From the NCBI GenBank assembly GCA_029862065.1, contig JAOTYB010000003.1, positions 1 to 39,986 of the forward strand: DNA of 39,986 nt. Reading direction: 5' to 3'. The stretch's first letter is position 1, and the number at the start of each line of letters is the position of its first letter. The stretch comes from Acidimicrobiia bacterium. Lineage in GTDB: Bacteria > Actinomycetota > Acidimicrobiia > Spongiisociales > SHLN01. Both the position numbers and the translations under genes were made by a program. Positions 2,009 to 28,884 of this stretch are shown here, in pieces. The notes under the pieces are model-generated. The model worked only from the letters and a program-made list of their open reading frames with translations, searched no databases and had not been told where the DNA came from.

Positions 2009-2051
2009 GGGGTCCCTTCTTCGTGCCTCGCCCGGCAGATCCTATCGGCGG

Positions 2052-5975: not shown

Positions 5976-6023
5976 AAGTCGGCGTGCGCGGGCCTCGACT
6001 TGACCGCCTTCCACCATAAGGTA
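5976..6023 (-). promoter_or_regulatory. sigma-28-like promoter (TCAA-N16-GCCGACTT) plus an upstream TACCTT -10-like hexamer for the ugd operon
   Basis: Minus strand: TACCTT (6023-6018), TCAA (6003-6000), 16 nt, GCCGACTT (5983-5976). Resembles the sigma-28 consensus TAAA-N15/16-GCCGATAA. Confidence 0.55.
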
Positions 6024-6063
6024 GCGGGTGATGGCCACCGGCGCAGTAGGTCGAGCGACTCGC

Positions 6064-7362
6064 TCACTCCCCGAAGTCGGCGTCGGCACCGAGGAACACA
6101 ATGATGTCGACGCCGCCGGTGGTTGGATTGCCATCCTGCACCAAGCCGATCCCGATTTGGGCAACGAATGCATCGGCTGCGGCGATCTCGCCGGGGCGGG
6201 TTATCACCACGGTCTCGTCATACATCCGGTCGGCATTCCCGACCACAGCCACGACATGGCCAAGCGACTCGACAAGGTTCTTGAATTCCAGAGCGGCCCC
6301 GTTGCGGCCGTTTCCATTCCGTACCTCTATCCGCAAAGAGAACGCCGCATCTCCCGTCAGCGAGTTTCCCGCCCGGAAATCTTCCAACAACGCCGGCGCT
6401 TTTTCCGGATCGGGCCGAACATACGAGACCCCTTCGATGTTCTGAAAGTACACGGGGAGTGTGACCGCTTCGAGAGCGGCTGTGTCGAAGGACCGCATGT
6501 CCCAGGCCAGGTCGCGAAGCGTGTCGTAGTCGAGGCCGGCGTCGGTCTTCAGCTGCTCGCCGATTGCACCCACCAGCTCCCCCATGTCGAGGAGATTGGT
6601 CGGCCGCTTGGCTTCGTTGAGGATGGTGAACACCAGTTCTTGCTGGCGCTTGGTCCGGTCGAGATCGTCGCCGGGCACCCCCTGCCACTGGCCATCGACT
6701 AGCTCCTCGAGCGACCGGGCCCTGGCAAAGGAAAGAGCGGTTGGTCCGTCCATGTGGACAACACCGGCCGGCACGTTGAGGCCAGATTTGAGATCCCGGG
6801 TGGGGAGGGCAAAGAAGAAATCGATGCCATTCAGCTGGTCCACTATCGAAGAGAACCCCACGAAGTCAATCTCGACGTAGTGGTTGATCGAGACGCCGGC
6901 CACCGCCGAGGCCGCCTCGATCAACTGGTTCGGATCGCGGGCGTAGGTGGCGTTGAGCTTCTCACGGGATCCGTCGTCACGGATGACTAGTAAGTCGCGA
7001 GGGAGACTCACGAGCTGTGCGGTTTGCTTGGCCGGATCCAACCGGAACAGCATGATGACATCTGCCCGCTCACCTTCGAATTCGCCGAAGAACTCCAGGG
7101 ATCCGGTCAGGTTCTCGCAGGTGTCGCTCCCCACCAGCAAGAGGTACAAAGCCTTATCTGCTTCATCAACGGGCGCCACGAGCGCGGGCAGTTGCTCCTG
7201 AGGAATCTGTTCGATCGATCGATCGATCGCATCTTTGATGCCGTTGAGGTAGAAGAGCACGGCAAACACGACGACGTTGGCGAACAGAAGCAAGCCGATG
7301 AGGACCCGTTTCGTCACGACGCCAATTGGAAAGGGCACGGACGGTGCGGCAGAGCGCTGCAT
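6064..7362 (-). CDS. LCP (LytR/CpsA/Psr) glycopolymer-peptidoglycan ligase with C-terminal LytR_C domain
   Basis: N-terminal TM helix; LLVGSD, RADVIML, SLPRD, KLNATY, FARAR, DLDRTKRQQ; C-terminal EVRNGNGRNGAA...GNAD...DIIVFLGAD. Confidence 0.92.
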   Translation of the reverse strand: MQRSAAPSVPFPIGVVTKRVLIGLLLFANVVVFAVLFYLNGIKDAIDRSIEQIPQEQLPALVAPVDEADKALYLLLVGSDTCENLTGSLEFFGEFEGERADVIMLFRLDPAKQTAQLVSLPRDLLVIRDDGSREKLNATYARDPNQLIEAASAVAGVSINHYVEIDFVGFSSIVDQLNGIDFFFALPTRDLKSGLNVPAGVVHMDGPTALSFARARSLEELVDGQWQGVPGDDLDRTKRQQELVFTILNEAKRPTNLLDMGELVGAIGEQLKTDAGLDYDTLRDLAWDMRSFDTAALEAVTLPVYFQNIEGVSYVRPDPEKAPALLEDFRAGNSLTGDAAFSLRIEVRNGNGRNGAALEFKNLVESLGHVVAVVGNADRMYDETVVITRPGEIAAADAFVAQIGIGLVQDGNPTTGGVDIIVFLGADADFGE

Positions 7363-7404
7363 TTGGGCGAGGTTACTACCGACCCGGATTCAGTTACGGC
7401 AGGT

Positions 7405-8076
7405 TCAGCTTGCCAACACCTGCGTGAAGTGAGCGACCGTTCGATCGGCGACGTCCTCGGCGACCTCCCACTGGTAGTCGGAGGCCGCCTCGTCGATCAG
7501 CCCATGGCCCACTCCCCCGTAGAGAACCCATTCTCCGGAGCTGAGTTGTGCCTGGGTTCGGTTCCGGTCGGCCCCGTCGACGATGGCGTCTTCTTTGCCA
7601 AAAAAGCCAAGGAGCGGGATGGGCGGAGCCGACGGACCTTCGCTCACGACCGGAGAGATCAGGACAACTCCTCCCACCATGTCTGAGGTGGCGACAAAGC
7701 CGAGGGCCGCAGGAGCCGCCCGGTCCATAGCGAGCAGACCAACCGCCCCGGATTGCACCCACGGTGTATCCGTACTGGCGATCCAGTGGGAGGCGTCGGC
7801 TAGGACCGAGGCCACCGCCTGATCCGCCGGCCAGTCGCTCGTCCGGCCGCGATACAGGTCGGGACAGGCCACCGCCAACCCGTATCTGGCCAACCGGCGA
7901 GCAAAGGCCTTGACCGAAGCCGTCACTCCATCGTGGCCGTGGACGAGCAGGATGGTCGGGAACGAACCGGTGTGATCGGGCCGAGCGAGGTAGCCGCGAT
8001 TGTGTCGAAGGCCAGAGAAGATATCGGCGGCGCCATAGAGGATCTGGTGAGTGCCCTCGCCCTTCAACAGTGCCAT
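7405..8076 (-). CDS. dienelactone hydrolase-like alpha/beta hydrolase with an atypical nucleophile elbow
   Basis: GYLARP, ARRLARYGLAVACPDLY, GFFGKED and YGGVGHG match the DLH fold; the GxCxGG motif is replaced by AMDRAA. Confidence 0.75.
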   Translation of the reverse strand: MALLKGEGTHQILYGAADIFSGLRHNRGYLARPDHTGSFPTILLVHGHDGVTASVKAFARRLARYGLAVACPDLYRGRTSDWPADQAVASVLADASHWIASTDTPWVQSGAVGLLAMDRAAPAALGFVATSDMVGGVVLISPVVSEGPSAPPIPLLGFFGKEDAIVDGADRNRTQAQLSSGEWVLYGGVGHGLIDEAASDYQWEVAEDVADRTVAHFTQVLAS

Positions 8077-8093
8077 CGACGCCTTCCGCCTAA

Positions 8094-8783
8094 TCAGTCG
8101 GTGAGCGTAGTCGGGCGTACGGTGTGTACTTGGCCAGATCGCAGGACCTGGCGGCCGGTAGCCCCCTCCACCACCAAGCCCCCGGTGGCGTCGATCCCGA
8201 TGGCAGTGGCCGGGCCGCCTCCCTCCCAGGCAATCACCGATCCGATGGTGGCACTCACTTCTTCATACTCGGCGGGAAGGAAACCCTCGGGCCCGGCCGC
8301 CAGCTCCGCGAAGAGATCCTCGCACCATTGAGTTGCGATCCTCCGACCTGCCTCCGGCCCCGGATCGTCTCGGAAGAGGCCGGCCATCCCTTGCGGCGCA
8401 TCCGGCCAGTGCAGGTTGACTCCCATGCCCATCACCACCAGCTCTCCGGTCCTCTCGGCCAGCAAGCCCGCCACTTTCTCACCCGACTCGGTCAACACAT
8501 CGTTCGGCCACTTCAAGGCCACCGCCGGCCCCAGAACACGTTTGGCCGACAATCCGGCCACGAGTGTGATGAGCGGAACCTGGTCGACGGGCCACCATGT
8601 CTCGAAGGCCACGGATGTCGCCAGCGCCCGCGGAGCGCTAACCCATCCGGTCCCGCCCCGGCCCCGGCCGGCCTCCTGGGCTGTCGCAGTCACGAGGCAC
8701 GGACGTCCGTCAAACCGGGATCTCGCTTCGTCTTGAGTGGATGCCACACGTTCGAGGTGGTGGACAGCGTATTCTGTAGCCAA
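8094..8783 (-). CDS. birA: biotin--[acetyl-CoA-carboxylase] ligase (no N-terminal HTH)
   Basis: VASTQDEA, QEAGRGRGGTGW, LKWPNDV, KVAGLLAE, GMGVN. Start chosen at TTG 8783 behind a GGGAGG RBS; alternative ATG at 8816. Confidence 0.9.
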   Translation of the reverse strand: MATEYAVHHLERVASTQDEARSRFDGRPCLVTATAQEAGRGRGGTGWVSAPRALATSVAFETWWPVDQVPLITLVAGLSAKRVLGPAVALKWPNDVLTESGEKVAGLLAERTGELVVMGMGVNLHWPDAPQGMAGLFRDDPGPEAGRRIATQWCEDLFAELAAGPEGFLPAEYEEVSATIGSVIAWEGGGPATAIGIDATGGLVVEGATGRQVLRSGQVHTVRPTTLTD

Positions 8784-8816
8784 ATCAGACCTCCCAGGGT
8801 CTAAGGACGACAGCAT

Positions 8817-10364
8817 ATGAGCACCGACGACCGCATCAGCCGACTAGAAGCCCTCCGCGCGGAGAATTCAGCCGCCCACGAACGGGCTGTCGATCGTCAA
8901 CATGAGCGCGGCAAGCACACCGCTCGCGAACGCGTCGAAATGCTCGTCGACAAGGGCTCATTCCAAGAGATCGACACGCTCGTCCGACATTCGGCCGTCG
9001 GCTTCGGCATCGAAGAGCACCGGCCGCTTGGCGACGCGGTTATCACCGGGTGGGGCACGATCGATGGACGGAAGGTGTTCCTGTTTGCCGAGGACTTCAC
9101 CGTGTTCGGAGGCAGCCTGGGTGAGGTGGTCGCCGACAAGATCACCAAAGTCATGGACCTGGCGCTGGAAGTCGGGGCTCCGCTGGTCGGCCTCAAGGAT
9201 TCGGGCGGGGCCCGTATCCAGGAGGGGGTTGGCTCGCTTGACGGTTACGGCAGGATCTTTGAGCGCAACGTGCGGGCGTCGGGTGTCATCCCCCAGATCT
9301 CAGTGATCATGGGACCCTGCGCAGGAGGAGCCGTCTACTCACCGGCCCTCACCGACTTCATCTATCAAGTGAACGAAACCAGCCACCTTTTCATCACCGG
9401 ACCCGATGTAATCAAAACGGTTACCGGTGAGGACGTCACGTTCGAAGAGCTCGGCGGGGCCCATTCGCATTCGTCGGTGTCGGGTGTCACCCACTTCGTT
9501 GCCGCCGACGATCGGTCGGCCATGGAGGAGATCCGCTACATCCTGAGCTTCCTGCCGGCCAACAACCTCGAGGCCGCCCCCTACTTCACCCCGAACGACA
9601 AGCCGGACCGCATGGATGAGGAGCTGACGAGCATCATTCCTGATTCGTCGAACCAGCCCTACAACATGCACCATCTGATCGAGCTGGTGGTTGACGATGC
9701 CGAGTTCTACGAGGTCCACGAGCACTACGCCCAGAACATCGTGGTCGGCCTCGCCCGCCTCGACGGTCATTCGGTTGGCATCGTCGGTAATCAGCCCGCC
9801 TCGCTGGCCGGCACACTCGACATCAATGCCTCGGTCAAGGCCGCCAGATTTGTTCGGTTCTGCGATGCCTTCAACATCCCGATCATCACCTTTGTTGACG
9901 TGCCCGGGTTCCTGCCAGGGGTCGACCAGGAGCACGGCGGCATCATCCGCCACGGCGCCAAGCTGCTCTACGCCTATGCCGAGGCCACGGTCCCCAAGAT
10001 CACCGTGATAACCCGCAAGGCGTACGGCGGCGCCTACGTCGTCATGAACTCACGGAGCCTCCGAGCCGACCTCGTATACGCCTGGCCTTCGGCTGAGATC
10101 GCCGTCATGGGAGCAGCCGGCGCAGTCAACATCATTCACCGCCGCGAGCTGGCAACGACCGAAGAACCCGAAACCGAGCGAGCCCGGCTGATCGATGAGT
10201 ACGAGACAACGTTCAACAATCCCTACCTGGCTGCCGAAGCGGGCCTGGTTGACGAAGTCATTCTCCCCCGGGAGACCCGGCCGCGGCTGATCCGGGCGCT
10301 TGACATGCTCAGGACCAAACGCGAACAGCCTCCGCCCAAGAAGCACGGAAACATCCCTCTTTGA
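8817..10364 (+). CDS. pccB: acyl-CoA (propionyl-CoA) carboxylase carboxyltransferase beta subunit
   Basis: [60 protein letters not shown] and terminal KKHGNIPL. Confidence 0.93.
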
Positions 10365-12100
10365 TGGAGTCGCTCCTTGTTGCCAACCGGGGCGAAATAG
10401 CAGTCCGGATCATTCGCACGGCCCGCGAGATGGGCATCCGCACGATCGCCGTGTATTCCGAGATCGATCGCGGCGCACTTCACACCTCGCTGGCCGACGA
10501 GTCGTGGAACATCGGCGGCTCGACGGCCGCCGAGTCGTACCTCAACACCGAACGGGTTCTCGAGGTTGCCCGGGAGGCCAAGGCTGCGGCCGTTCACCCC
10601 GGCTATGGATTCCTGTCCGAGAACGCCGACTTCGCCCGGGCAATCGGCGACGCCGGGCTGGCATGGGTGGGTCCCCCGCCTGAGGCCATCGAAACCATGG
10701 GAGACAAAATCGCATCTCGCATGGCCGCCACGGCCGCCGGGGTGGCGGGCGTACCGGGAACCTCTGAGCCGCTCACCGATCCGGCCGAGGCGATCGCCTT
10801 TGCCGCCGAACACGGCTACCCGCTGGCGCTCAAGGCCTCACACGGAGGTGGGGGCAAAGGCATGCGGATCGTTCAGGCCGATGACGAGGTTGCTCCCGCG
10901 CTGGAAGCCGCCGCCCGAGAGGCTCAGGCCTATTTTGGGCGGCCCGAGGTGTATATCGAGCGCTACCTGGAGCGTCCCCGCCACATCGAAGCCCAGGTCA
11001 TCTTCGACACCCACGGCAACGGATTCTTTCTCGGAGAGCGAGATTGCAGCAGCCAACGCCGCAATCAGAAGCTGATCGAAGAGTCTCCAGCCGCCGGGGT
11101 GAGTGAAGATCTGCGCGGGGCGATCGGCGAGGCCGCCCTGGCCGTCGGCGAAGCCTGCGCCTATGTCGGAGCGGGCACCGTCGAATTCCTCCTTGAGCCT
11201 GATGGACAGTTCTACTTCCTCGAGATGAACACCCGCCTGCAGGTGGAGCACCCGGTGACCGAGATGGTGACCGGACTCGACCTGGTTCGCCTCCAGCTGG
11301 AAGTGGCAATGGGCGACGAGCTCGACTTGTGGGATGTGCCGAGCTCAGGGCACGCCATCGAAATGCGGGTGAACGCAGAGGACCCGGGACGGGACTTCCA
11401 GCCGTCCCCGGGCCGCATCACCGAGTATCGGGAGCCGGGAGGCTTCGGCGTGAGAGTCGACAGCGGGGTCGAGGCCGGCTCGACAGTTAGCCCCTACTAC
11501 GACAACTTGGCGGCCAAGCTGGTGGTGTGGGCGCCTAGCCGCCATCTGGCGATCGAAAAGGCGCTGCGGGCAGTGGCCGACTTCAAGATCGGTGGCATTC
11601 CGACCACACTCGCCGCCCACCCGTTGCTCCTCAGGCACGAGCTATTCCAGAGCGGCCGGCACTACACCAAGTTCGTCGAAGACCTCCTCGACTTCACCGG
11701 GGTTGGCAGCGACGAAGGGCCGGCGCTCCCCGAAGACGAGGCAACCACAATGCGCCAGGCCACGGTCGAAGTCGGCGGCCGTCGCTACGACGTCAAGATG
11801 TGGTTCCCCGAGGGGGAATTGTCCGGAACCGGGCCGCGCCGGCGTCCCCCGCGCCTGGAGCGCGGTGCCGTGCCCGGCGACGACGGCGGCATGATCACCG
11901 CCCCCATGCAGGGAACCATCGTCAAGGTGTCCGTCAAGGCCGGAGGTCAGGTCAGAGCGGGCGACACACTGTGCATTCTCGAAGCCATGAAGATGGAGAA
12001 CGAGATCAAGGCGCCGGCCGACGGTGACGTGGTCGACCTCCGGGTCCAGGCCGGCGACAGCGTGGCAGCCGGAGACGTCCTACTCGTCGTGCGCGGTTGA
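10364..12100 (+). CDS. acetyl/propionyl-CoA carboxylase alpha subunit (biotin carboxylase + biotin carrier)
   Basis: ANRGEIA, HPGYGFLSEN, GGGGKGM, RDCSSQRRNQK, EMNTRLQVEHPVTE and biotinylation motif EAMKM; translationally coupled to pccB (TGATG). Confidence 0.95.
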   Translation: MESLLVANRGEIAVRIIRTAREMGIRTIAVYSEIDRGALHTSLADESWNIGGSTAAESYLNTERVLEVAREAKAAAVHPGYGFLSENADFARAIGDAGLAWVGPPPEAIETMGDKIASRMAATAAGVAGVPGTSEPLTDPAEAIAFAAEHGYPLALKASHGGGGKGMRIVQADDEVAPALEAAAREAQAYFGRPEVYIERYLERPRHIEAQVIFDTHGNGFFLGERDCSSQRRNQKLIEESPAAGVSEDLRGAIGEAALAVGEACAYVGAGTVEFLLEPDGQFYFLEMNTRLQVEHPVTEMVTGLDLVRLQLEVAMGDELDLWDVPSSGHAIEMRVNAEDPGRDFQPSPGRITEYREPGGFGVRVDSGVEAGSTVSPYYDNLAAKLVVWAPSRHLAIEKALRAVADFKIGGIPTTLAAHPLLLRHELFQSGRHYTKFVEDLLDFTGVGSDEGPALPEDEATTMRQATVEVGGRRYDVKMWFPEGELSGTGPRRRPPRLERGAVPGDDGGMITAPMQGTIVKVSVKAGGQVRAGDTLCILEAMKMENEIKAPADGDVVDLRVQAGDSVAAGDVLLVVRG

Positions 12101-12104
12101 GCCG

Positions 12105-13664
12105 CTAGGGCCGGTACTCGCCAAAGACCTCGCGCAACACATCCGACACCTCACCCACTGTTGCCCCGGCCGCCAGCGCCGCCTTCATTGGGAACAAGAC
12201 GTTGTCTGACCCGGCGGCCGCGATGCCGATGGCTTCCAAGGCTCCGTCGACATCTTCTCGACCCTCTTTGAACAGCTTGAGACTGGCGATCTGATCAGCC
12301 TCGAGATCAGGGTCGAGCTCCAATGGCGGAACTCCGGTGGCTCCGTCTTCGACGTAGGCATTCAATCCCACGATGACCTGCTCGGCCGAGTCAACCGCCC
12401 GGGCAGTCCGGTACGCCGACTCTTCGATCGCTGCTTGGACCATTCCGGTCTCTATCGCCGCCACCGCCCCGCCGGCGGCGGCCACCCGGTCGACGATCGC
12501 CAGCGCCTTGGCCTCGAGCTGGTCGGTGAGGTGTTCGATGACGTAGGACCCGGCCAGCGGGTCGACGGTGTCGGTCACTCCGCTTTCGTGGGCAATGACC
12601 TGCTGGGTCCGCAACGCCAGCATGGCCGCTTCTTCAGTCGGCAACCCGAGCGCCTCATCAAATGAGTTGGTGTGCAGCGACTGCGTGCCGCCCAACACGG
12701 CGCTGAGCGCTTCGAGCGTGGTCCGGACCACATTGGTGAGCGGTTGCTGGGCGGTGAGCGAACTGCCGGCCGTCTGCGTGTGGAACCGCATTCGCCATGA
12801 GGCCGGTTGGCGTGCTCCGACTCGATCGCGCATGAGTCGCGCCCACAGCCGCCTGGCCGCCCGGTATTTGGCGACCTCTTCGAGGAAGTTGCTGTGGGCA
12901 TTCCAGAAGAACGAGAGGCGGGGAGCGAAGTCGTCGACCGCCAACCCGGCGGCCTGGGCGGCCTCGACGTAGGCCAGCCCATTGGCGATTGTGAACCCGA
13001 TCTCCTCGGCGGCCGTCGAGCCGGCTTCGCGGATGTGATAACCGGAGATGGAGATGGTGTTCCAGTCCGGGAGCTCGGCCGCGCAATAGGCGAAGAGGTC
13101 CGTCACGAGTCGCATCGATGGGGCAGGCGGATAGATGTAGGTACCCCGGGCCACGTATTCCTTGAGAATGTCGTTCTGCACGGTGCCACCGAGCCCGGCC
13201 GGTGTCACACCCTGCTCCTCAGCCACCAGTTGATAAAGGAGCAACAGGATGGCGGCCGTGGCATTGATGGTCATCGAGGTGGTGACCTCGCCGAGGGGGA
13301 TGTCGGCGAACAGCACCCGCATGTCGGCCAGGGTGTCGATGGCGACACCGACCTTGCCGACTTCTCCCTCCGCTCGAGGGTCATCGCTGTCGAGGCCCAT
13401 CTGGGTGGGAAGGTCGAACGCCACCGAGAGACCGGTTTGCCCGCCCGCCAGGAGTGCCCGGAACCGCTGGTTGGTGGCCGTGGCGCTGCCGAAGCCGGCG
13501 TACTGACGCATGGTCCACGGCCGGCCGGTGTACATGGTGGGATACGGCCCGCGGGTGAACGGGTACTCGCCGGGGGCGCCCAGATCCGGCTCGGACGTTG
13601 GAGGCCCATGGACCACGTCGAGCGGAATGTCACGGCTTGGGATGGGATTCGCGGGGTTATGCAT
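12105..13664 (-). CDS. methylmalonyl-CoA mutase, substrate-binding (TIM-barrel) subunit without B12-binding domain
   Basis: [21 protein letters not shown] (specificity Tyr), [16 protein letters not shown] (specificity Arg), [19 protein letters not shown]. No DxHxxG motif. Confidence 0.92.
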
Positions 13665-13738
13665 GAGTCGGGTTTATGCTGGCCGAGGGCAAATGGTACC
13701 TGGAACCGATCCGGTGCCCGGCGCCCTCCAACATCCAC

Positions 13739-16297: not shown

Positions 16298-16314
16298 CCG
16301 CTCCGCCGGGATGG

Positions 16315-16728: not shown

Positions 16729-16735
16729 GGCCTCA

Positions 16736-16768
16736 TCAATACCATTTAGAACGATATTACGTCAATAT
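16736..16768 (-). promoter_or_regulatory. sigma-A-type promoter with an operator-like palindrome over the -35 box
   Basis: Minus strand TTGACG (16765-16760), 18 nt, TATTGA (16741-16736); palindrome ATATT-ACGTC-AATAT at 16754-16768 in an AT-rich patch. Confidence 0.5.
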
Positions 16769-16806
16769 TCGTGGTTTAAAACGCGAAAAGAATCATAGGC
16801 AGTACG

Positions 16807-16835
16807 CGGTCGGCTGTCGGCTGTCGGCTGTCGGC
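16807..16835. repeat. 7-bp tandem repeat (CGGCTGT)n
   Basis: cggt cggctgt cggctgt cggctgt cggc directly upstream of the moeB -10 box. Confidence 0.85.
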
Positions 16836-16844
16836 GAACTGAAA

Positions 16845-16856
16845 TAGACTCTGCCG
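16845..16856 (+). promoter_or_regulatory. -10 hexamer for a probable leaderless moeB transcript
   Basis: TAGACT, 6 nt, then ATG 16857; no Shine-Dalgarno. Confidence 0.55.
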
Positions 16857-18008: not shown

Positions 18009-18051
18009 CTCGGCGATCGATGTATTTCTCTCGCTCGCGTAGCGTGCACCC

Positions 18052-18687: not shown

Positions 18688-18742
18688 GTCCCGCGTTGTC
18701 GGAGGATTGGCCTAGCTGCCGCGCCGCTGTCCGACCACAGAG

Positions 18743-19036
18743 TTGCCGTTTGCTGAGTGGTCCGAGTGGTGGATATACGAGGAGCCAACTCCAATGCTTC
18801 GCCCGGGGGTGTTCGTCAACTATGGAGGTTTCACTCTTGAACTTCCCACAGCCGACGCCACTTCGTTCCAGGCTGATGAGCAAACCCGGTTCTGGGGGCA
18901 ACTTGACCAGTACCAACGTGTCTCGGTGCTTGCCGAGGGTGACCTCACCATCGTCGTGACCCGCGACGTTCACGCATGGCGTCAAGTCAGCGACTGGGTC
19001 GAATCCGCACTAGATCACCCTGATCTCGCGCCATAA
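18743..19036 (+). CDS. hypothetical protein or 5'-truncated gene fragment
   Basis: 97-aa ORF with protein-like composition, weak TTG start, no RBS and an in-frame stop at 18713; lies at the edge of the accessory segment. Confidence 0.4.
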   Translation: MPFAEWSEWWIYEEPTPMLRPGVFVNYGGFTLELPTADATSFQADEQTRFWGQLDQYQRVSVLAEGDLTIVVTRDVHAWRQVSDWVESALDHPDLAP

Positions 19037-19107
19037 CGCTCAGTTCGAAGAGTGCACTGGAACGGCACATATTGAGTGGTTTCAGCGCCGTTTTCCCCTG
19101 AGGGAAG

Positions 19108-19746
19108 TCAGAACTCCGCCTTGAGCGCATTGAGGAATCCGACCAGGTCGTTAACTGTGTCCACCATGGTGTCAGGTGAGCGTTCCATGTTGAGTGTCCA
19201 ATATTGGATACCTGAGGTTCCTACCTCGGCTCTGGGATAAGCCTCGAACGCATCCTTGACAGTTGGCGAGGCGTGAAGGCGCATCCGCAGGGCGTTCTTT
19301 TCGCTCTCAGAAAGCAGGTCGGCCTCGTTGTGATCGAAAGTGCCGACCCGATACACGGTGTTGTCGTTGACAAGCGCGATCTGGACCTCGATGCCGTTAA
19401 CGCGGCCTTCGAGGCCGAACGGCTTAGCCTTGGATGTCAGTCCAAGTCTTTGACCTGCTTTCTCCCACTCCTCGTGCCTTGCCTTCTTGCTCAGTACCAG
19501 TTCTAGCTGTCGTCGGATTCCCAGCCGTTGCACAGACCTCTCACGGTCCTCTGCGTAGATCCGCCAGCTTTTGAAGGCGGCCACATAGGCCAAGATCGCG
19601 ATTAGAAAACTCTGGGCGGAGCGCAAACCTGCCAACCCAACAACCACGAAAACGCTACCAATGACGAGCAGGATCAGCACGCGGGGCCGCGTTACTGAAC
19701 GCCACCAGTCATTTGCACCGCCTAACCTCTCCACTTTGTTCGCCAT
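19108..19746 (-). CDS. hypothetical membrane protein (two N-terminal TM helices plus soluble domain)
   Basis: ATG 19746 preceded by GGAAGGAGGG RBS; hydrophobic segments VLILLVIGSVFVVVGLAGL and FLIAILAYVAAF; visibly more A/T-ending codons than its neighbours. Confidence 0.75.
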   Translation of the reverse strand: MANKVERLGGANDWWRSVTRPRVLILLVIGSVFVVVGLAGLRSAQSFLIAILAYVAAFKSWRIYAEDRERSVQRLGIRRQLELVLSKKARHEEWEKAGQRLGLTSKAKPFGLEGRVNGIEVQIALVNDNTVYRVGTFDHNEADLLSESEKNALRMRLHASPTVKDAFEAYPRAEVGTSGIQYWTLNMERSPDTMVDTVNDLVGFLNALKAEF

Positions 19747-19863
19747 ATAAGACCCTCCTTCCCGGAACCGCGCTACACCAACGGCCAAGGGCCCGCCCAC
19801 GTCCTAGGACGCAGCCGAGGGCTGCTTTCCACGAAAAGTAAGCGGAACGCCGGAGGCCGGATA

Positions 19864-19909
19864 AGGGCCAGAAGCCACAATCTGTGAGGGTCAGAAGCCA
19901 CAAAAAGTG
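19864..19909. repeat. two tandem 23-bp imperfect repeats (operator/iteron-like)
   Basis: AGGGCCAGAAGCCACAATCTGTG (19864-19886) and AGGGTCAGAAGCCACAAAAAGTG (19887-19909), 19/23 identical. Confidence 0.8.
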
Positions 19910-20052
19910 AGATAGTGAACGACTCACAACCCACACAGATCGGCACATATTGAGTGGGAACCAGCTCTCCCACACCGCCAAGCGTCCGGGATCCAACCGT
20001 CACCTCTCGACCGAAATCTGCCAACTGGTGAGCAGTGTTTCGCCAACCCTCT

Positions 20053-20103
20053 TACAATCGGCGTGGGCATCAAGGAAGCGGAGTACATGCCGAAATTGTT
20101 CCT
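20053..20103 (+). promoter_or_regulatory. sigma-28-like promoter (TCAA-N15-GCCGAAAT) plus an upstream TACAAT -10 hexamer for the SpoIID gene
   Basis: TACAAT 20053-20058; TCAA 20070-20073; GCCGAAAT 20089-20096; 7 nt; ATG 20104. Confidence 0.6.
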
Positions 20104-22227
20104 ATGAGAACTCACCTAGCCGCGCGCGCTGGGCGCTGGCTCGGCATCGGGCTTGCTCTGTCGTTGGTGCTGCTCCCGGCTCCGGCATCGGCCGCCGACC
20201 CGAGCGAGCCAACCGAGCCCACGTTCACCTTCACAGGTGGCGGGTACGGCCACGGCACCGGCATGAGCCAGTACGGCGCCCAGGGTCAGGCACTGGAAGG
20301 ACGCAGTTGGCAAACCATCCTCAGCACCTACTTCACGGGGGTGGACTTCGCCCTGCTTCGCACCAGCCCGGCCCCCGGTCAGATCGGAGATGAGGGCCCG
20401 TTGTGGGTGGGACTCGGACAGGACCTCACCCACCAGGAAATCCGCATCTGGCCGATCGCCGAAAACCCCACCGCGGTAACCGTGACCCGCGGCGCCGAGA
20501 GCATCGCCGTCCTCCCCGGTCCCGACAACATCCTCACGTTCGACTTCACGCCCTCCGGCTGCACCTTCAGCGTGGCGGGCGTCAGCTGGCCGGCCGGCGC
20601 CTGCCACTTCGACATGGAGTGGGACGGCTGGGCCGAATCCCCCACAGTCGCCCTCGACACGACCCTCACCGACTTCGACCCCGAGTGCGATCGGTCCGGC
20701 GAACGCTGCTACTCGCGGGGCAGCATGAAGATCCGCCCCAATGTTGCCGTTGGAGACACCCCGAGCGGGTTCCACCTGGTGGTGAACGTCGACATGGAGG
20801 ACTACCTCTACGGGCTGTTAGAGGTCCCGTACAGCTGGCACCCCCAAGCCCTGGCGGCTCAGGCAGTGGCCGGACGCTCCTACGCCGCCAACAAGCAAGC
20901 ACTGCGAGGCTCCCCCGAGGAGAAGACCATCCGCCAGGAGCTGTGCTGGTGCGAGTTGTACGACTCGACTGTCGATCAGGTGTACGGAGGCTGGGGTCGC
21001 GGCGTGCCGGCCTGGCTGGACGCCGTCGACGCAACCGCCGGAATCGTCCTCTATCACCCGGCCGTGACGGCTCCGTCGTTCCATCCGCGGCCCGGCCAGC
21101 CGGTGGCAGTCCCGACGTTCTATTCCTCCTCCACCTTCGGCCACACCGAAGATTCGGGAGTCGCCTTCGGCGGCTCATTCACCCCCAGCTACCTGGTCGG
21201 CGTCCCCGACCCATGGTCCACCCTCCCTGCAACCGGCAACCCCCTCGGCACCTGGGAGAAGGAAATCACTCGCACCCAGCTAGCCGGCATGGTGGGCCTC
21301 GACACGGTGGATCACGTAGCCGTCGTCTCCTGGTTGCGACAGGGCACCGCCTACCAGAGCGCCTATCAGCTGACCTTTTCCGGGACCAAGAACGGTGAGT
21401 CCGACACCGTTACCCGCTTTGCTCGGCAGCTCAGGACTCCTCTCGGCTTGTGGTCGATGCAGATAACCGGTGTCACAAAATTCGTGCCCGACGGCTGGGT
21501 CGATACCGGCGGAGGCTCAGATGCCCCGGACCAGATCGGCATGCACGACCCGCTCACCGGCCGGTGGCATATTCGCGATGCCGATGGCACCGTCCGCCCC
21601 GCCTTCTACTACGGGGACCCAGGCGACATCCCCCTGACCTGCGATTGGAACTTCGACGGGGTGAGCACCGTCGGCCTCTACCGTCCCACCGCCGGCTTCA
21701 TGCATCTGCGCAACAGCAACGACCTGGGGGTGGCCGATCTCAGCTTCTACTTCGGCATTCCCGAGGACGTGCCAATCTGTGGCGACTGGAACGGAGACGG
21801 CTTCGAAACCATCGGCATCTACCGCCCGTCAACGCGTGTCTTCCACCTGGCCGACACCAACGAAACCAAGTTCGCCGACTACGACGTGGTGCTGGCCGCC
21901 CCCGGGTCGGTTCCGCTGGCCGGGGATTGGAACGGGAACGGCTTCGACACGATTGGCCTGTACGACCCGGTCAGCCGGGTCGTGTCCCTGACCAACTCGT
22001 TGAGCAACCCAACCATCGCCATCAGCTACGACTACAACACCATTCCCGAAGACAAGATCATCACCGGTGATTGGGACGGAGACGGTGACGACACCGTCGG
22101 GGTGTTTCGCCCGCCGGACCTGGCGTCCTATCTTCGAGACGACTTCGTGATGACATCCTCCAACCACCAGATAGAAGACTTCGGCGAGGCTCACTGGACG
22201 CCGGTAGCCGGAGTGTGGGCCGGCTAG
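20104..22227 (+). CDS. secreted SpoIID/LytB-domain protein with C-terminal five-repeat FG-GAP-like propeller module
   Basis: Signal peptide ending PASA-A; GGGYGHGTGMSQYGA; MEDYLYGLLEVPYSWHPQALAAQAVAGRSY; DSTVDQVYGG; FYSSSTFGHTE; YLVGVPDPW; C-terminal GDWNGDG repeats. Confidence 0.88.
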   Translation: MRTHLAARAGRWLGIGLALSLVLLPAPASAADPSEPTEPTFTFTGGGYGHGTGMSQYGAQGQALEGRSWQTILSTYFTGVDFALLRTSPAPGQIGDEGPLWVGLGQDLTHQEIRIWPIAENPTAVTVTRGAESIAVLPGPDNILTFDFTPSGCTFSVAGVSWPAGACHFDMEWDGWAESPTVALDTTLTDFDPECDRSGERCYSRGSMKIRPNVAVGDTPSGFHLVVNVDMEDYLYGLLEVPYSWHPQALAAQAVAGRSYAANKQALRGSPEEKTIRQELCWCELYDSTVDQVYGGWGRGVPAWLDAVDATAGIVLYHPAVTAPSFHPRPGQPVAVPTFYSSSTFGHTEDSGVAFGGSFTPSYLVGVPDPWSTLPATGNPLGTWEKEITRTQLAGMVGLDTVDHVAVVSWLRQGTAYQSAYQLTFSGTKNGESDTVTRFARQLRTPLGLWSMQITGVTKFVPDGWVDTGGGSDAPDQIGMHDPLTGRWHIRDADGTVRPAFYYGDPGDIPLTCDWNFDGVSTVGLYRPTAGFMHLRNSNDLGVADLSFYFGIPEDVPICGDWNGDGFETIGIYRPSTRVFHLADTNETKFADYDVVLAAPGSVPLAGDWNGNGFDTIGLYDPVSRVVSLTNSLSNPTIAISYDYNTIPEDKIITGDWDGDGDDTVGVFRPPDLASYLRDDFVMTSSNHQIEDFGEAHWTPVAGVWAG

Positions 22228-22248
22228 GCCCTAACCTCGCAGCTATTG

Positions 22249-23262
22249 ATGGATACCTCACTCGTCCTGGTCACCCACAACTCCGAAGCCCACATCGAAG
22301 CGTCCCTCGAAATCCTGCTCACCGACCCGCACGGCCCTGATGAGATCATCGTCGTCGACAACGCCTCGACCGACGCCACGATCGGCATCGTTGAGCGGAT
22401 GGGTGTCAAGCTCGTCACGCTCGATGAGAACCATGGCTTTCCCTATGGCTGCAACCTCGGGGCATCGCTCACCCGCGGGGAAGTCATTGCCTTCCTCAAC
22501 CCCGACACCGAGCCCAAGCCAGGATGGCTGCCGCCACTGGTAGCCGCCATCCAGCGCCCGGAGGTGGGAGCCGCCATGCCGGTGATGGACCTCACCTATG
22601 CACCCGACCACTGGTTCACCTCCGGCAGCGCCCTCACCTTTCTCGGCTTCGCCTGGTCTACCAACAGCGGCGACCCCATTCCCAATGGCCTGAGCGAGAT
22701 CGAAGTCCCGTTCGCCTCGGGGGCAGCCTGCGTCATGGACCGGGCACTGTTCGACCACCTTGGCGGGTTCCGCGATGAGTACTTCCTCTATCTCGAAGAC
22801 GTCGACCTCGGGTGGCGGATCCGGCTGATGGGCCTCAAGAGTGTTCAGGTTCCGGAGTCACGAGTGTCTCACGACTACGAGTTTGGACGGCATGAGCGCA
22901 AGATGTACTACCTGGAACGCAACCGCCTCCGCATGGTGTGGGCCAACTACCAGCCATCCACCCTGGCGCTCCTCGCCCCGGCTCTGATCCTGGTGGAGCT
23001 GGCGGTGGTGGCTGCCGCTATCCGGCATGGATGGATGCGGCAGAAAGTCCAGAGCTGGTGGGGGTTCTGGAAGCTGCGCTCGCTGTTGCATCAGGAGGCA
23101 TTGCGATCGCGTTCCATCCGGGAGGTCAGCGACGGCGAGATCCTCGCGTCAATGGATGCTTCCTTCGACGGAATCAATCAGTTCGAAATCCACCCGCTCG
23201 TCAGGTCCTTGAACCGCCTGGCCATTGGCTATCTCAAGCTGGTCCAACGCCTGGTTCGCTAG
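22249..23262 (+). CDS. GT2 glycosyltransferase (WbbL/rhamnosyltransferase-like)
   Basis: VTHNS, VDNASTD, GFPYGCNLG, FLNPD, SGAAC, GGFRDEYFLYLEDVDLGWR, YYLERNR. Confidence 0.9.
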   Translation: MDTSLVLVTHNSEAHIEASLEILLTDPHGPDEIIVVDNASTDATIGIVERMGVKLVTLDENHGFPYGCNLGASLTRGEVIAFLNPDTEPKPGWLPPLVAAIQRPEVGAAMPVMDLTYAPDHWFTSGSALTFLGFAWSTNSGDPIPNGLSEIEVPFASGAACVMDRALFDHLGGFRDEYFLYLEDVDLGWRIRLMGLKSVQVPESRVSHDYEFGRHERKMYYLERNRLRMVWANYQPSTLALLAPALILVELAVVAAAIRHGWMRQKVQSWWGFWKLRSLLHQEALRSRSIREVSDGEILASMDASFDGINQFEIHPLVRSLNRLAIGYLKLVQRLVR

Positions 23263-24473
23263 TCCCAGGCTCCTGCCACCGGAGCCGAGCCGTTCGAACC
23301 GAACGCGACGATGACATCCTGTGCGCTCGGTTCATGACCGAGCAGCAGGTGGAACTCATCAGTGGCCGGGCGCAGATACCCGAGGGTGTCTGACCCATCG
23401 GCGTTCCAGTCGCCAACCACGATCTGATCGCCGGCCAGGATCTCGGTCCGTGGGAGTGCCAGGACGTTGCCCAATCGAGTTCCGCCGTCGGCCAGATACA
23501 CCATGCCGGTTGCGGGGCGGAATAGGCCGACGCTGTGATGGCCGTCGCCGAACCAGTCGCCGGCCAGTGGAACGTCGCCGACCTCGCCAAAGCGGATTTC
23601 GGCATCGGCAAACCCGTAGGAGTTGCTGTTGCGGAGATAGAAGGTCCGATCACTCGGTCGGTAGATGCCGATGGTCTCAAGCCCATCCCCATCCCAATCG
23701 CCACAGAGGGGGATGTCCTCGGGGATCCCGTAGAAGATGGCGACATCGGCAACTCCGAAGTCGTTGCTGTTGCGCAGGTAGAGATACCCGCTCGCGGCGC
23801 GGTACAGACCGACCGTGGTGTCACCGTCTCCATCCCAGTCGCAGGTAACCGGGACGTCGGACGGGACGCCGTAGTAGAAGCTCGACGGGGAGCCGTACAG
23901 CGCCCAGGTGCCGCGGGCGGGGTCGTGCAGGCCGACCCGGTCGGCGCCAGGCGGGAACCGGTAATCGTCGCTCTCGGCGGCGCCGGATAGCCCCTCCGGG
24001 CCACGCATGAACACGACGGTGACGAACATCGAGCCGTCCTCGCGGATCACCACTCCGACGCCCGCATAGTTGGAGTTGCCGACCACGTTGGCCCGGTGGA
24101 CGTCTGATTCCCAGAAGGCCCGATCCAGCCCGCCGACGTCGTAACCCACGCCAACATTCTCGCCAAGGGCGTACCAGTTGGTCGTGACGCTTCCCAGGGC
24201 CGGGTTGTGGCAGATTCGGTCACCGTTCGGACAGTGCCCCTGGGACTGAAACAGGCTGTGGTCGCGGGCGTCGTCCACCAGATCCCAGTAGGGGGCGAGC
24301 GGCGCCAGGCTGGCCTCGGCCCGGCGCTGGTTGATCAATCGCAGGAACTCAGATTCGGCCCAGGCCTCATTGGTGCCGGCGGCTCCGGCCGGCAGGCTCA
24401 CGGCAGACAGCACCATCAACACGGCCGTCATGAGGATGATCATCCGCCGAACTAACACCGGGGGGCCTAGCAC
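23259..24473 (-). CDS. secreted CAP (SCP/PR-1) domain protein with C-terminal five-repeat FG-GAP-like propeller module
   Basis: Signal peptide; LINQRR..LAPL, ARDHS, HN, GENVG, SDVHRAN, GVGV; four GDW-type repeats plus a split fifth. Start GTG 24473 or ATG 24443. Confidence 0.88.
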   Translation of the reverse strand: MLGPPVLVRRMIILMTAVLMVLSAVSLPAGAAGTNEAWAESEFLRLINQRRAEASLAPLAPYWDLVDDARDHSLFQSQGHCPNGDRICHNPALGSVTTNWYALGENVGVGYDVGGLDRAFWESDVHRANVVGNSNYAGVGVVIREDGSMFVTVVFMRGPEGLSGAAESDDYRFPPGADRVGLHDPARGTWALYGSPSSFYYGVPSDVPVTCDWDGDGDTTVGLYRAASGYLYLRNSNDFGVADVAIFYGIPEDIPLCGDWDGDGLETIGIYRPSDRTFYLRNSNSYGFADAEIRFGEVGDVPLAGDWFGDGHHSVGLFRPATGMVYLADGGTRLGNVLALPRTEILAGDQIVVGDWNADGSDTLGYLRPATDEFHLLLGHEPSAQDVIVAFGSNGSAPVAGAWD

Positions 24474-24500
24474 TTTCTGTGGTATTCCTGCTCACGGATA

Positions 24501-24530
24501 GCATCGGAATATGCCGGAATTACTGAAGGG
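24501..24530 (-). promoter_or_regulatory. sigma-28-like promoter (TTCA-N15-TCCGATGC) for the CAP gene
   Basis: Minus strand CCCTTCAGtaattccggcatatTCCGATGC; closely resembles the promoter of the GH26-like gene. Confidence 0.55.
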
Positions 24531-24563
24531 GGCCAACGCCCAACGAACCGCTGTGGGGGGTCA

Positions 24564-24607
24564 GGCATCCGGCATCCGGCATCCGGCATCCGGCATCCGG
24601 CATCCGG
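24564..24607. repeat. 7-bp tandem repeat (GGCATCC)x6
   Basis: Six perfect copies at 24564-24605. Confidence 0.95.
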
Positions 24608-24640
24608 GGCGTTCCCAACAAGACCTATTGACGCAAGACC

Positions 24641-24880
24641 GGAAAGCGAGCGGAGCGAGCGCCTTCCCCCGGAAAGCGAGCAAAGCGAGCGCCGGACACC
24701 GGAAAGCGAGCAAAGCGAGCGCCGGACGCCGAAAAGCGAGCAAAGCGAGCGCCGGACGCCGAAAAGCGAGCAAAGCGAGCGCCGGACGCCGAAAAGCGAG
24801 CAAAGCGAGCGCCGGACACCGGAAAGCGAGCAAAGCGAGCGCCGGACACCGGAAAGCGAGCAAAGCGAGCGCCGGACGCC
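24641..24880. repeat. 30-bp tandem repeat x8 (G(G/A)AAAGCGAGCAAAGCGAGCGCCGGAC(A/G)CC)
   Basis: Eight head-to-tail 30-bp units; the first is divergent; no spacers. Confidence 0.95.
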
Positions 24881-24920
24881 GGTAGCCGGTTAGCCGGTAG
24901 CTGGTAGCCGGTAGCTGGCT
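24881..24920. repeat. degenerate 7-bp tandem repeat GGTAGC(C/T)
   Basis: ggtagcc ggttagcc ggtagct ggtagcc ggtagct ggct, running up to the stop codon of the GH26-like gene. Confidence 0.85.
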
Positions 24921-26664
24921 AGCGAACAGCTAACGCATCTACGAACCCTGACTCCACAACGTCGAGGGTGTAATCGGCGGGTCCGACTGTGTTGGTCATT
25001 CGGAAGTAGACCTTGTCGGTTGACGACCGGTAGACGGCAACGGTGTCGAACCCGTCGCCGTTCCAGTCGCCGGCCATGATCCGATCGGAGGGATCGCCGT
25101 AGAAGAACTCGAACTCGGCGATACCGGTGGTGAGGCTGTTGCGGAAGTAGACGAGCCCGGTCGACTCACGGTAGAGGCCGACGGTGGTGAAGCCATTCCC
25201 GTTGAAGTCACCGGTAAACGGACGGTCCCCGGCCAGCCCGAACCAGAAATCGAAGTCGGCGGGTCCGGTCCCCAGCGTGTTCTTGATGTAGACCCGGCCC
25301 GTCCGGTAGATGCCGAGCGTGTCGCAGCCGTCGTTGTTCCAGTCCCCGACAATCGGGATATCCCCGGGGTCGCCGTAATAGAACTCGACGTCGGCCACGC
25401 CCACGGTGTTGCTGTTACGCAGGTACACGAAGCCGTTCGACTCGCGGTACATACCGGGGGTGGCCGTACCGTCGCAGTTCCAGTCCCCCATGAGCGGCGT
25501 GTCCGCCGGGTTGCCGTAGTAGAAGGCGTTGATCGGAGCTCCGGCCTGGACTTCCGCCAGGAGGTTGATTTCGGATCCGGGGTCGACGAACGCCACCGTG
25601 TCGCACTCGAAGCCGTCGGGACAGGGACCGTCGAACTGGGCAAACGGGAGCGGGCCAGCCTGGAACCAGTTGGTCAGCGGGAACTGATAGCTGGTGGTCG
25701 CTCGCCGCATCCCATCCCGGTAGCCCCACCATCCCGGCTTGATCGGTGATGGATCGTCGTTGTCCCAGATCCACCAGTCGTAGGACGGCACGACGGCAGT
25801 CTGATCCTTGTTGAAGTAGATGAAGCCGACCAAGTTGGGATCCTCTTCGACGAAGGTGAACATGTCCAGCATCCACTGGTTCTTGTCGCCTCCGGCAGTG
25901 ACGCTCCCCACCTGGGCAAGCAGGAACGGCTTGCCGGACGCTCCGGGGATGGTGGCCCGAGCCTCATCGACGTAGGGACCGATCGCCCCGGCCGGGGTCA
26001 ACCATCCGTTATAAACATCGGGGCTGCCGAAGTTGTAGGTGCTGAAGGAAATGACATCCACGTAGGCGTCGCCCGGGTAGTAGTCGGCTATCCCGTAGGG
26101 CAGCTCCGACCATCCGTTGGGAGAGAACGCCCAGCGCACCTTGTCGGGATCGGTGACCGTCGACTCGACGATCGACCGGATCTTGATGTAGGCGGTCTTG
26201 AAGTTGGCCGGGTCCATGCCGTACGGAACCCAGTCGCCGTTCATCTCCTGCATGGGAGCGATGATGAGCGAACGACCCCCGCCATCATCCAGCCAATCCT
26301 TGACTTTGAGGGCCCAGGAAGTGATCTGAGCGTCGCGCGACGGGCCGGCGAGGGTGGCCGCCGTCTCGGTGAACTCGAGATTCGAGAACGGGGTGGCCCC
26401 GGCCGCCCACATGGCTTCGAGCTTGTTGACGGTCCAGACCTCGTCGATGTTGTGAAACAGGCCGCCGAAGGTGTGGTACTGCCAGGCGGCGCCTGAGATG
26501 GCATTCAGTTCGGCGGTGTAGTCGAGCGTCAGGGGATACAGGCCGCCATGCACGGTGCCCTCTCCGAAGATCATGTCCGGGGGATCAGCATGGGCGGACT
26601 GGCCCATGCCGGGCAGCGTCGCCAGGAGGGCGAGCGCAATGACGGAAATGGCAATCCTGCGCAT
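24919..26664 (-). CDS. secreted GH26-like (beta-mannanase fold) protein with C-terminal five-repeat FG-GAP-like propeller module
   Basis: Start reassigned to ATG 26664 (signal peptide MRRIAISVIALALLATLPGMGQSAHA); PMQEMNGDWVPY, WAFSPN, YYPGDAYVD, KPFLLAQ, GFIYFN; GDW repeats. Confidence 0.82.
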   Translation of the reverse strand: MRRIAISVIALALLATLPGMGQSAHADPPDMIFGEGTVHGGLYPLTLDYTAELNAISGAAWQYHTFGGLFHNIDEVWTVNKLEAMWAAGATPFSNLEFTETAATLAGPSRDAQITSWALKVKDWLDDGGGRSLIIAPMQEMNGDWVPYGMDPANFKTAYIKIRSIVESTVTDPDKVRWAFSPNGWSELPYGIADYYPGDAYVDVISFSTYNFGSPDVYNGWLTPAGAIGPYVDEARATIPGASGKPFLLAQVGSVTAGGDKNQWMLDMFTFVEEDPNLVGFIYFNKDQTAVVPSYDWWIWDNDDPSPIKPGWWGYRDGMRRATTSYQFPLTNWFQAGPLPFAQFDGPCPDGFECDTVAFVDPGSEINLLAEVQAGAPINAFYYGNPADTPLMGDWNCDGTATPGMYRESNGFVYLRNSNTVGVADVEFYYGDPGDIPIVGDWNNDGCDTLGIYRTGRVYIKNTLGTGPADFDFWFGLAGDRPFTGDFNGNGFTTVGLYRESTGLVYFRNSLTTGIAEFEFFYGDPSDRIMAGDWNGDGFDTVAVYRSSTDKVYFRMTNTVGPADYTLDVVESGFVDALAVR

Positions 26665-26671
26665 GCCCGAA

Positions 26672-26707
26672 ACATCGGCAAGGCGCCGGAAACCTGAAGG
26701 GTATGCT
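26672..26707. promoter_or_regulatory. back-to-back promoters: sigma-28-like on the minus strand (TTCA-N15-GCCGATGT) and TATGCT -10 on the plus strand
   Basis: Minus strand TTCA 26698-26695 and GCCGATGT 26679-26672, 7 nt before ATG 26664; plus strand TATGCT 26702-26707, 6 nt before GTG 26714. Confidence 0.6.
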
Positions 26708-27694: not shown

Positions 27695-27709
27695 TCACCG
27701 GGGAGCCCT

Positions 27710-28855: not shown

Positions 28856-28884
28856 CGCAGCCCGCAGGCTACCCGGGATGCGCC

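Follow-up and report, generated by a model that had tools for sequence, protein, structure and literature searches.

A conserved WhiG-type promoter is predicted before wall-enzyme and nucleotide-sugar genes of an uncultured Acidimicrobiales bacterium

The window analysed here is contig JAOTYB010000003.1 at its full length of 39,986 nt. It is the whole of contig C144 of a metagenome-assembled genome of an uncultured Acidimicrobiales bacterium (GCA_029862065.1, G000; 2.14 Mb, 255 contigs, 64% G+C, 79% complete). It encodes three proteins with a C-terminal propeller module, of the SpoIID, CAP and GH26-like types, and a five-gene nucleotide-sugar operon that begins with ugd. An element of two short boxes stands before each of the three genes and before the operon. 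The original prediction took these four sites for sigma-28-like promoters; the sequence reads exactly as it claimed at all four, and the coordinates were re-derived (Table 1). The assigned gene identities are borne out by Pfam (SpoIID, CAP, Glyco_hydro_26, UDP-glucose dehydrogenase and the four genes following ugd). We suggest, with a probability of roughly 0.85, that RNA polymerase with WhiG, the actinobacterial sigma-28 factor of the FliA/SigD family, uses the four sites as promoters. They would be part of a surface programme controlled by the anti-sigma factor RsiG and cyclic di-GMP (c-di-GMP). The data below indicate that the four operons share a real and evolutionarily conserved sigma-28 (WhiG)-type promoter, beyond chance.

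Genes were called in G000 with a simple codon-usage caller, which gave 2,233 genes and 193 kb of intergenic DNA; the calls are crude. In the intergenic DNA the two boxes keep a narrow distance. With the spacer k varied from 8 to 25, TCAA-Nk-GCCGA is found 14 times at k=16, 7 times at k=15 and 0–5 times at each of the other 16 spacers (mean 1.9). The Poisson probability of the k=16 peak is 1e-8, and this test uses no training. When the search is anchored on strong -10 blocks, TCAAG occurs 15 times at one spacer and 0–2 times at each of 15 others. Raw counts of TCAAG-Nk-[GT]CCGAT over the whole genome (12 at k=15, 8 at k=12, 6 at k=18) are blurred by codon periodicity and were therefore not used to compare genomes.

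A position matrix was grown from 42 seed sites, with TCAA and CCGA seeded. It converged on tncTCAAGan, an 11-nt gap and cTGCCGATAAnt, that is, TCAA-N16-GCCGATAA; the local consensus is (C)TCAAG-N15-(T)GCCGATAA. Though CCGA alone was seeded in the -10 box, the matrix recovered the G, T, A and A that flank it in the sigma-28 hallmark GCCGATAA. The 184.5 kb of intergenic segments hold 55 matches scoring at least 16 and 76 scoring at least 14, against 2.7 ± 1.4 and 9.4 ± 3.5 in 30 dinucleotide shuffles. Hence the motif, for which a frequency equal to background had been named as the outcome that would speak against it, stands well above the shuffled level.

The matches are also oriented. A gene start on the same strand lies at most 150 nt away in 51 of 63 matches scoring at least 16, and a start codon follows the 8-mer after 6–8 nt in 13 of 88 matches scoring at least 14. 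Starts of open reading frames (ORFs) after GCCGA[TA]NN peak at offset 7 (11, against 0–8 at the other offsets), the same distance as at the SpoIID and GH26 sites. Leaderless transcripts are predicted from this peak, and those of the SpoIID and GH26 genes are predicted to be leaderless because their ATG lies 7 nt past the 8-mer. The CAP promoter gives a 5′ untranslated region of about 20–50 nt, depending on the start codon; 24473, 24458 and 24443 are possible starts, and the N-terminal comparison with relatives favours 24458.

This consensus equals the WhiG2 consensus published for actinobacteria, T(A/C)AA-N16-GCCGATAA, as it is given in the main text of Denis et al. (2026, bioRxiv), and we count the agreement in favour of WhiG. 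The sigma-28 family assignment of the original prediction is thus borne out by consensus, narrow spacer and conservation. Its -35 box TAAA is not: locally the box is TCAAG, as published for actinobacterial WhiG.

The individual sites were also followed in relatives. Each protein was searched against 20–40 related genomes and the 200 nt before each orthologue were scanned; G017 and G028, both unpublished, enter some of the tallies, and the relatives are not independent of each other. A match scoring at least 14 is present in 39 of 64 orthologous upstream regions (SpoIID 8/16, GH26 5/14, CAP 12/15, ugd 14/19). By the match density in these 260 kb of relatives' loci, 0.027 matches would fall in a 200-nt region, or about 1.7 in all 64, and 39 of the 71 matches in these loci sit at the four promoters.

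The SpoIID set comprises 16 regions (20 loci, minus three without N-terminal match and the window itself). Five of the six same-genus orthologues read GGGCATCAAGGAAGCGGAG..ATGCCGA...-7 nt-ATG, one of them with TAAAG, and score 16.4–18.5; the sixth keeps the -10 box (10.2). The site is also seen as TAAAG...GCCGAAAA in genus g3 (21.1), and two f10 family genomes have it as well (14.4 and 14.1). For GH26 there are 14 regions (16 loci, minus the window and one cut at the locus end). Canonical TCAAG precedes five orthologues in other genera (18.0, 15.7, 15.7, 15.4 and 17.3, one 15.7 being from unpublished G017). The five analysable same-genus loci score 9.2–11.5, and all of them read CCCTTCAG, N15 of unrelated sequence and [GT]CCGATGT, exactly 7 nt before the ATG. 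Before CAP, 12 of 15 relatives have canonical TCAAG or TAAAG at the equivalent place (14.7–25.0), one scores 9.8 and two have nothing. For ugd, all seven same-genus loci read GGTCAAGT-N-GCCGATT[TC] with variable spacers (15.4–17.5), and genus g2 scores 18.3–20.5. The ugd match lies 75–91 nt 5′ of the start in two g2 loci and in L119, versus 25–29 nt in genus g1. Boxes that stay the same around diverging spacers, and do so in several genera and families, are the mark of selection on a bipartite promoter.

A FliA/WhiG-family sigma factor, which the original prediction called for, is present. The canonical WhiG gene of G000 runs into the end of contig C104. Its assembled 105 residues are 95–97% identical to full-length WhiG of the same genus, and its region-4 sequence nearly equals that of Streptomyces venezuelae WhiG. 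The same-genus orthologues score about 270 bits on TIGR02479 (FliA_WhiG; cut-off 189.6), and the cut-off is passed in 38 of 41 genomes of the order. RsiG is encoded on C30 as a 179-aa protein which aligns at full length to S. venezuelae RsiG (6pfj_T, E 5e-18, residues 18–175) and to Rubrobacter RsiG. It is the only ORF of G000 with E-x3-S-x2-R-x3-[QH]-x3-D; in the printed alignment its first motif is intact and the second ends with N, not D. RsiG is found in 36 of the 41 genomes, and in the two genomes of family f11 neither WhiG nor RsiG was found (the WhiG and RsiG counts include G017 and G028). The RsiG gene adjoins the CAP orthologue in one relative (G015:C34; RsiG 1737–2252, minus strand; CAP 260–700, plus strand), and the two genes are about 4 kb apart in another (G018:C11).

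Two other genomes of the order served as a natural control, with about 750 kb sampled per genome and genes called afresh. G022, of another family, has both WhiG and RsiG; TCAA-N16-NCCGA occurs there 13 times, other spacers 1–5 times, and 9 matches score at least 16. In G023 neither gene was found and the N16 peak is missing; the counts are 3 for the N16 spacer, up to 8 for other spacers, and 3 for matches of at least 16. The difference of 9 vs 3 has a one-sided P of 0.04, and we regard the control as supportive.

In agreement with the original prediction, flagellar genes were not found. FlhA (PF00771) turned up in none of the 14 genomes of the family searched, G000 included; across the order, 2 of 41 genomes have it. 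A flagellin search detected the gene in the positive control G014 but none in G000, G003, G004 and G010, the last three being at least 94% complete. The 79% completeness of G000 means that the absence from this genome alone proves little. A sigma-28 factor working without flagella, as the original prediction suggested, is already known for WhiG in Streptomyces and Rubrobacter.

The predicted regulon comprises roughly 55–90 promoters, many more than originally envisaged, with genes for type IV pili, chemosensory functions, c-di-GMP turnover and regulators in the lead. Sixty downstream genes were scanned against Pfam; 20 have no family and 40 fall into four groups. Five are pilus genes (two N_methyl pilins, a PilB-like ATPase, a PilT-like ATPase and TadE). 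Fifteen belong to signalling and regulation: six histidine kinases, a CheA-like kinase, a receiver domain, LuxR, WhiB, GAF, DUF4388 proteins, a GGDEF-EAL protein and two sigma-70-type genes. Twelve are envelope or surface genes (DUF11, SdrD-B, Wzz/ParA, Wzy_C, WecG/TagA, GT2, PAP2, signal peptidase, GDSL and three module proteins, namely a beta-helix protein, a G8/CEMIP protein and a Peptidase_M15_4 with FG-GAP repeats). The eight metabolic and other targets are mostly low-scoring or distant matches and are probable false positives. A second GGDEF gene lies directly downstream of a leaderless target on C147. The coupling of surface proteins to sugar supply, proposed originally, is retained as a promoter type shared across genera, and a regulon dedicated to propeller and sugar genes is not.

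Two observations concern other sigma genes among the targets. The best motif match of the genome (23.9; C65:2701–2733) stands 77 nt ahead of a sigma-70-type gene that has regions 1.2 to 4, and a match of 15.0 precedes a second sigma-70-type gene on C39. The position of these motifs suggests a sigma cascade.

The propeller module consists of repeats of GDW[DN]GDG..T.G.YR units, as seen in the alignment. Its AlphaFold model is an all-beta propeller (pLDDT 82.7), and its Foldseek matches are propellers and lectins, the best being 9oee_A, UmbA4 in a teichuronic-acid-bound complex (E 5e-9, TM 0.53). Pfam FG-GAP_3 matches a module paralogue on C255, and no usable match came from searching the PDB with the module sequence (best E 0.024). 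The module is present in 21 genes of G000. The matrix scan proposed for propeller genes was run and did find an enrichment: a match of at least 14 precedes 4 of the 19 module genes with a complete 5′ end, versus 5.2% of all genes. The other 15 have none. Hence the motif is enriched before module genes but does not define the module family. The module itself is strongly expanded, with 24 matches in G000 and 11–44 per genome of the same family, fused to many different catalytic or beta-helix domains.

Several points weigh against reading all four sites as WhiG promoters. The matrix was trained on DNA of the same genome, so that the excess over shuffles is somewhat inflated, and the intergenic set comes from a crude gene caller. 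Only 105 residues of G000's own WhiG are assembled, and the natural control rests on few matches. In genus g2 none of the four SpoIID orthologues has the motif; a TATCAT box stands there instead, which indicates that membership of the regulon is labile. Within the genome, the SpoIID site scores 18.3 (rank 39 among intergenic matches). The ugd site, with a good -35 and a weak -10 box, scores 13.4 (rank 101). The GH26 site scores 11.4, its -10 block being strong (11.8) and its -35 box poor, and the CAP site 6.9, below 8. The last three lie within the background range; by the window alone only SpoIID stands clear, and the support for ugd, GH26 and CAP comes from relatives that are not independent of each other. 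Last, the -35 variant TTCAG of GH26 and CAP does not recur elsewhere in the called intergenic DNA of G000 when -35 pentamers are checked without seeding, so the promoters of these two genes may have low strength or require a helper.

These low scores lead to the alternative that in G000 only the SpoIID promoter, and perhaps that of ugd, works, and that the TTCAG copies before CAP and GH26 are decayed or weak, with these genes dependent on another factor, on read-through or on another sigma. Besides the scores, it draws on the absence of TTCAG in the same register at the other strong -10 blocks of the genome and on the canonical TCAAG before CAP in other genomes of the genus. However, the TTCAG of GH26 is kept in all five analysable same-genus orthologues and occurs again in genus g11 while the spacers vary, which argues for selection. 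The variant also retains the T, A and G of T..AG that TCAAG and TAAAG have in common. Moreover, the matrix underrates TTCAG by construction, since the penalty for T at position 2 of the -35 box is an artefact of seeding with TCAA. We consider this alternative unlikely.

The motif could in principle be read by a sigma other than WhiG, either a FliA-like factor encoded on contig C40 or a sigma of the ECF or group-3 kind whose -10 box is of the CGA type. The C40 gene (C40:502–1410, L001) encodes a full-length second member of the FliA/WhiG family (198.9 bits; best structural relative 6pfv_A, E 3e-42), two motif matches (19.8 and 18.5) lie upstream of it, and the genome has several further sigma genes. 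Nevertheless, we rejected the C40 protein as the cognate factor. It is a different paralogue, 37% identical to the canonical WhiG of same-genus relatives and 45–46% identical to its nearest relatives in the set, the sigmas encoded beside FlhA and flagellin in G014 and G037. Searches of seven same-genus and six other same-family genomes returned no protein of the C40 type in any of them; their only matches, 34–38% identical, are canonical WhiG, and these genomes still keep the promoters. For the gene next to the C40 sigma, five relatives of the genus have no orthologue. Contig C40 is probably mis-binned and its sigma copy foreign. To our knowledge, GCCGATAA is a hallmark of the sigma-28 family only, which speaks against the ECF and group-3 candidates as well. 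Altogether, recognition by another sigma appears very improbable.

It is hardly credible that the four sites arose by chance, or that their conservation reflects a repressor site or an element of the 5′ untranslated region instead of a promoter: GCCGA is common in DNA of 64% G+C and the loose pattern of the original prediction occurs 253 times genome-wide, but the spacer peak, the excess over shuffles, the orientation bias, the leaderless register and the conservation across genera with variable spacers all oppose it.

Hence, we retain WhiG-directed transcription as the best explanation for the four sites. The motif with its spacing and conservation, and the genes for WhiG and RsiG, are seen directly in the sequences; recognition by WhiG, the start points of the transcripts and the role of c-di-GMP are inferences. 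Their arrangement is given in Table 1 with the genes they face.

Table 1. Putative promoters and the predicted genes and transcription units of the window (minus-strand promoter boxes are written 5′ to 3′ on their own strand)
Feature	Position	Strand	Details
SpoIID-propeller promoter	20070..20096	+	TCAA-N15-GCCGAAAT; -35 TCAAG 20070-20074; -10 GCCGAAAT 20089-20096; 7 nt; ATG 20104
GH26-like gene promoter	26672..26698	-	TTCA-N15-GCCGATGT; -35 variant TTCAG 26698-26694; -10 GCCGATGT 26679-26672; 7 nt; ATG 26664
CAP gene promoter	24501..24527	-	TTCA-N15-TCCGATGC; -35 variant TTCAG 24527-24523; -10 TCCGATGC 24508-24501
ugd operon promoter	5976..6003	-	TCAA-N16-GCCGACTT; -35 TCAAG 6003-5999; -10 GCCGACTT 5983-5976; ATG 5944
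SpoIID-domain protein, C-terminal FG-GAP-like beta-propeller	20104-22227	+	Pfam SpoIID; N-terminus reads as signal/membrane peptide
GT2 glycosyltransferase	22246-23262	+	Pfam Glycos_transf_2
Predicted transcription unit SpoIID-propeller + GT2	20104..23262	+	
GH26-like secreted protein, C-terminal propeller module	24919..26664	-	Pfam Glyco_hydro_26, E 2e-7; module alignment
CAP/SCP-domain protein, C-terminal propeller module	23259..24473	-	Pfam CAP; module match 23265-23948
Nucleotide-sugar (ugd) operon, five overlapping/close genes	1073..5944	-	Pfam; ORF layout

The ugd operon encodes UDP-glucose dehydrogenase, an epimerase/dehydratase, a GT2, a nucleotidyltransferase with hexapeptide repeats and an epimerase. 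The N-terminus of the GH26-like protein resembles a signal peptide (MRRIAISVIALALLA). A relaxed pattern chosen post hoc, T..AG-N14/15-[GT]CCGA[ATC], has 10 matches on both strands of the window; the four within the 1,852 intergenic nt (curated genes) are the four sites under study, each facing its gene. The matrix scan of the window gave no further truly intergenic site scoring at least 14, and the matches at 33483, 33693, 36539 and 36813 fall inside genes missed by the crude caller.

Some further features of the promoter regions were noted. A TACAAT box lies at 20053–20058, about 45 nt 5′ of the SpoIID ATG. It is kept or nearly kept in four of six same-genus relatives, the other two having TACACT and TAGACT, and an upstream TTTCGCGAT block accompanies it. 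Possibly a housekeeping-type promoter stands here as a second one, in tandem with that of the WhiG type. The CAP promoter (24501–24530) shares CCCTTCAGTAATTCCGG with the GH26 promoter of the relative G003 (L073), and other members of the genus have TCAAG before CAP; this sharing may reflect a promoter swap or gene conversion between the neighbouring CAP and GH26 genes. The spacer between the GH26 stop and the CAP promoter (24474–24918, 445 nt) consists nearly entirely of tandem repeats, with units of 7 nt x 6.3 at 24564–24607, 30 nt x 8.2 at 24638–24882 and 7 nt x 5.3 at 24878–24915. Other short repeats occupy this position in same-genus relatives. Elsewhere in the window, 26726–38115 and 6064–7362 hold several GT2 and GT1 genes, a UDP-GlcNAc 2-epimerase, an ABC-2 permease and ATPase, a DUF6020 gene and an LCP ligase, which look like a wall-glycopolymer cluster.

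By analogy with Streptomyces and Rubrobacter, we propose the following sequence of events as the most likely.

Step 1: RsiG loaded with c-di-GMP would sequester WhiG.

Step 2: With the fall of c-di-GMP, WhiG would be freed, join the core polymerase and read TCAAG-N15-GCCGATAA. Transcription would start about 7 nt past the 8-mer. In the window this would give leaderless transcripts of SpoIID-GT2 and of GH26, a short-leader transcript of CAP and the transcript of the five-gene ugd operon.

Step 3: Free WhiG would thus switch on one surface programme, which may comprise type IV pili with their chemosensory system, c-di-GMP turnover enzymes and further regulators. The same programme would include wall-glycan genes, the ugd operon among them, and the secreted wall-active propeller enzymes SpoIID, CAP and GH26. 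The GGDEF-EAL protein among the targets suggests feedback on c-di-GMP.

The combination of surface genes and wall enzymes under one sigma-28 factor has a known counterpart. In Bacillus subtilis SigD couples motility genes with the peptidoglycan hydrolases LytC, LytD and LytF; the organelle is the flagellum and the anti-sigma factor is FlgM. Here no flagellar genes were found in the searches above; type IV pili would take the place of the flagellum, and RsiG that of FlgM. Another counterpart is Rubrobacter radiotolerans, as described by Schumacher et al. (2021, PNAS): the organism is unicellular and non-sporulating, RsiG is present, and type IV pilus and GGDEF/EAL genes are preceded by a promoter of the sigma-28 type (TAAA / GCCGATAA), as in the Acidimicrobiales genome. 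The Rubrobacter switch is a WhiG-(RsiG)2-(c-di-GMP)2 complex, and 12 of its promoters were confirmed by start-site mapping; the approximately 55–90 here are predicted from sequence. The two systems also differ in the anti-sigma factor. RsiG of G000 aligns at full length with the twin-helix Streptomyces type, whereas that of Rubrobacter is of the small single-motif type. Beyond the Rubrobacter targets reported there, the regulon proposed here includes wall-active secreted enzymes and wall-glycan genes, and it belongs to another class, the Acidimicrobiia.

WhiG-RsiG of S. venezuelae is the best structural relative, with 6pfv_A for the C40 sigma and 6pfj_T for RsiG. However, S. venezuelae has a small regulon that serves sporulation and counts whiH and whiI among its known targets, according to the main text of Denis et al. 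(2026), while the one predicted here is large and devoted to the cell surface. The same text describes WhiG1 and WhiG2 regulons across Actinomycetota with the target classes that we find: chemotaxis, type IV pili, c-di-GMP enzymes, WhiB-like and sigma genes, and autoregulation. It contains no mention of Acidimicrobiia, cell wall, peptidoglycan or polysaccharide, and its supplementary tables may list such targets. Hence the promoter class and a flagella-free sigma-28 are already established, and the present case is an RsiG-linked WhiG regulon. Our literature search returned no paper combining Acidimicrobiia, sigma and WhiG. What appears new is the lineage, the predicted size of the regulon, and wall-active propeller enzymes and wall-glycan precursor genes as its targets; targets from Acidimicrobiia may already appear in the supplementary tables of the two WhiG papers, which would bear on this novelty.

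We also put forward, tentatively and as a more doubtful extension, a wider view of the programme. The WhiG-RsiG-c-di-GMP switch of Acidimicrobiales might control an integrated 'surface' programme of pili, a glucuronate-containing wall glycopolymer and wall-remodelling enzymes, whose propeller would be a lectin docking on that polymer; UmbA4 in its teichuronic-acid-bound complex, the closest structural match of the module, prompts this idea. The anchor and the anchored proteins would then be made together, many of them from leaderless mRNAs. To the proposed glycopolymer we assign the ugd operon, WecG/TagA, Wzy, Wzz and the window's cluster of LCP, TagGH-like ABC transporter and MnaA-like epimerase.

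Acidimicrobiales are abundant in waters, soils and wastewater; very few have been cultured, and their gene regulation is almost unknown. The present analysis gives a sequence-level map of one regulon of this order, with a named sigma, a named anti-sigma and c-di-GMP as the likely signal, conserved across at least ten families. It adds about a dozen predicted leaderless sigma-28 promoters, and would extend WhiG, as a sigma-28 factor freed from flagella, to another class of Actinomycetota.

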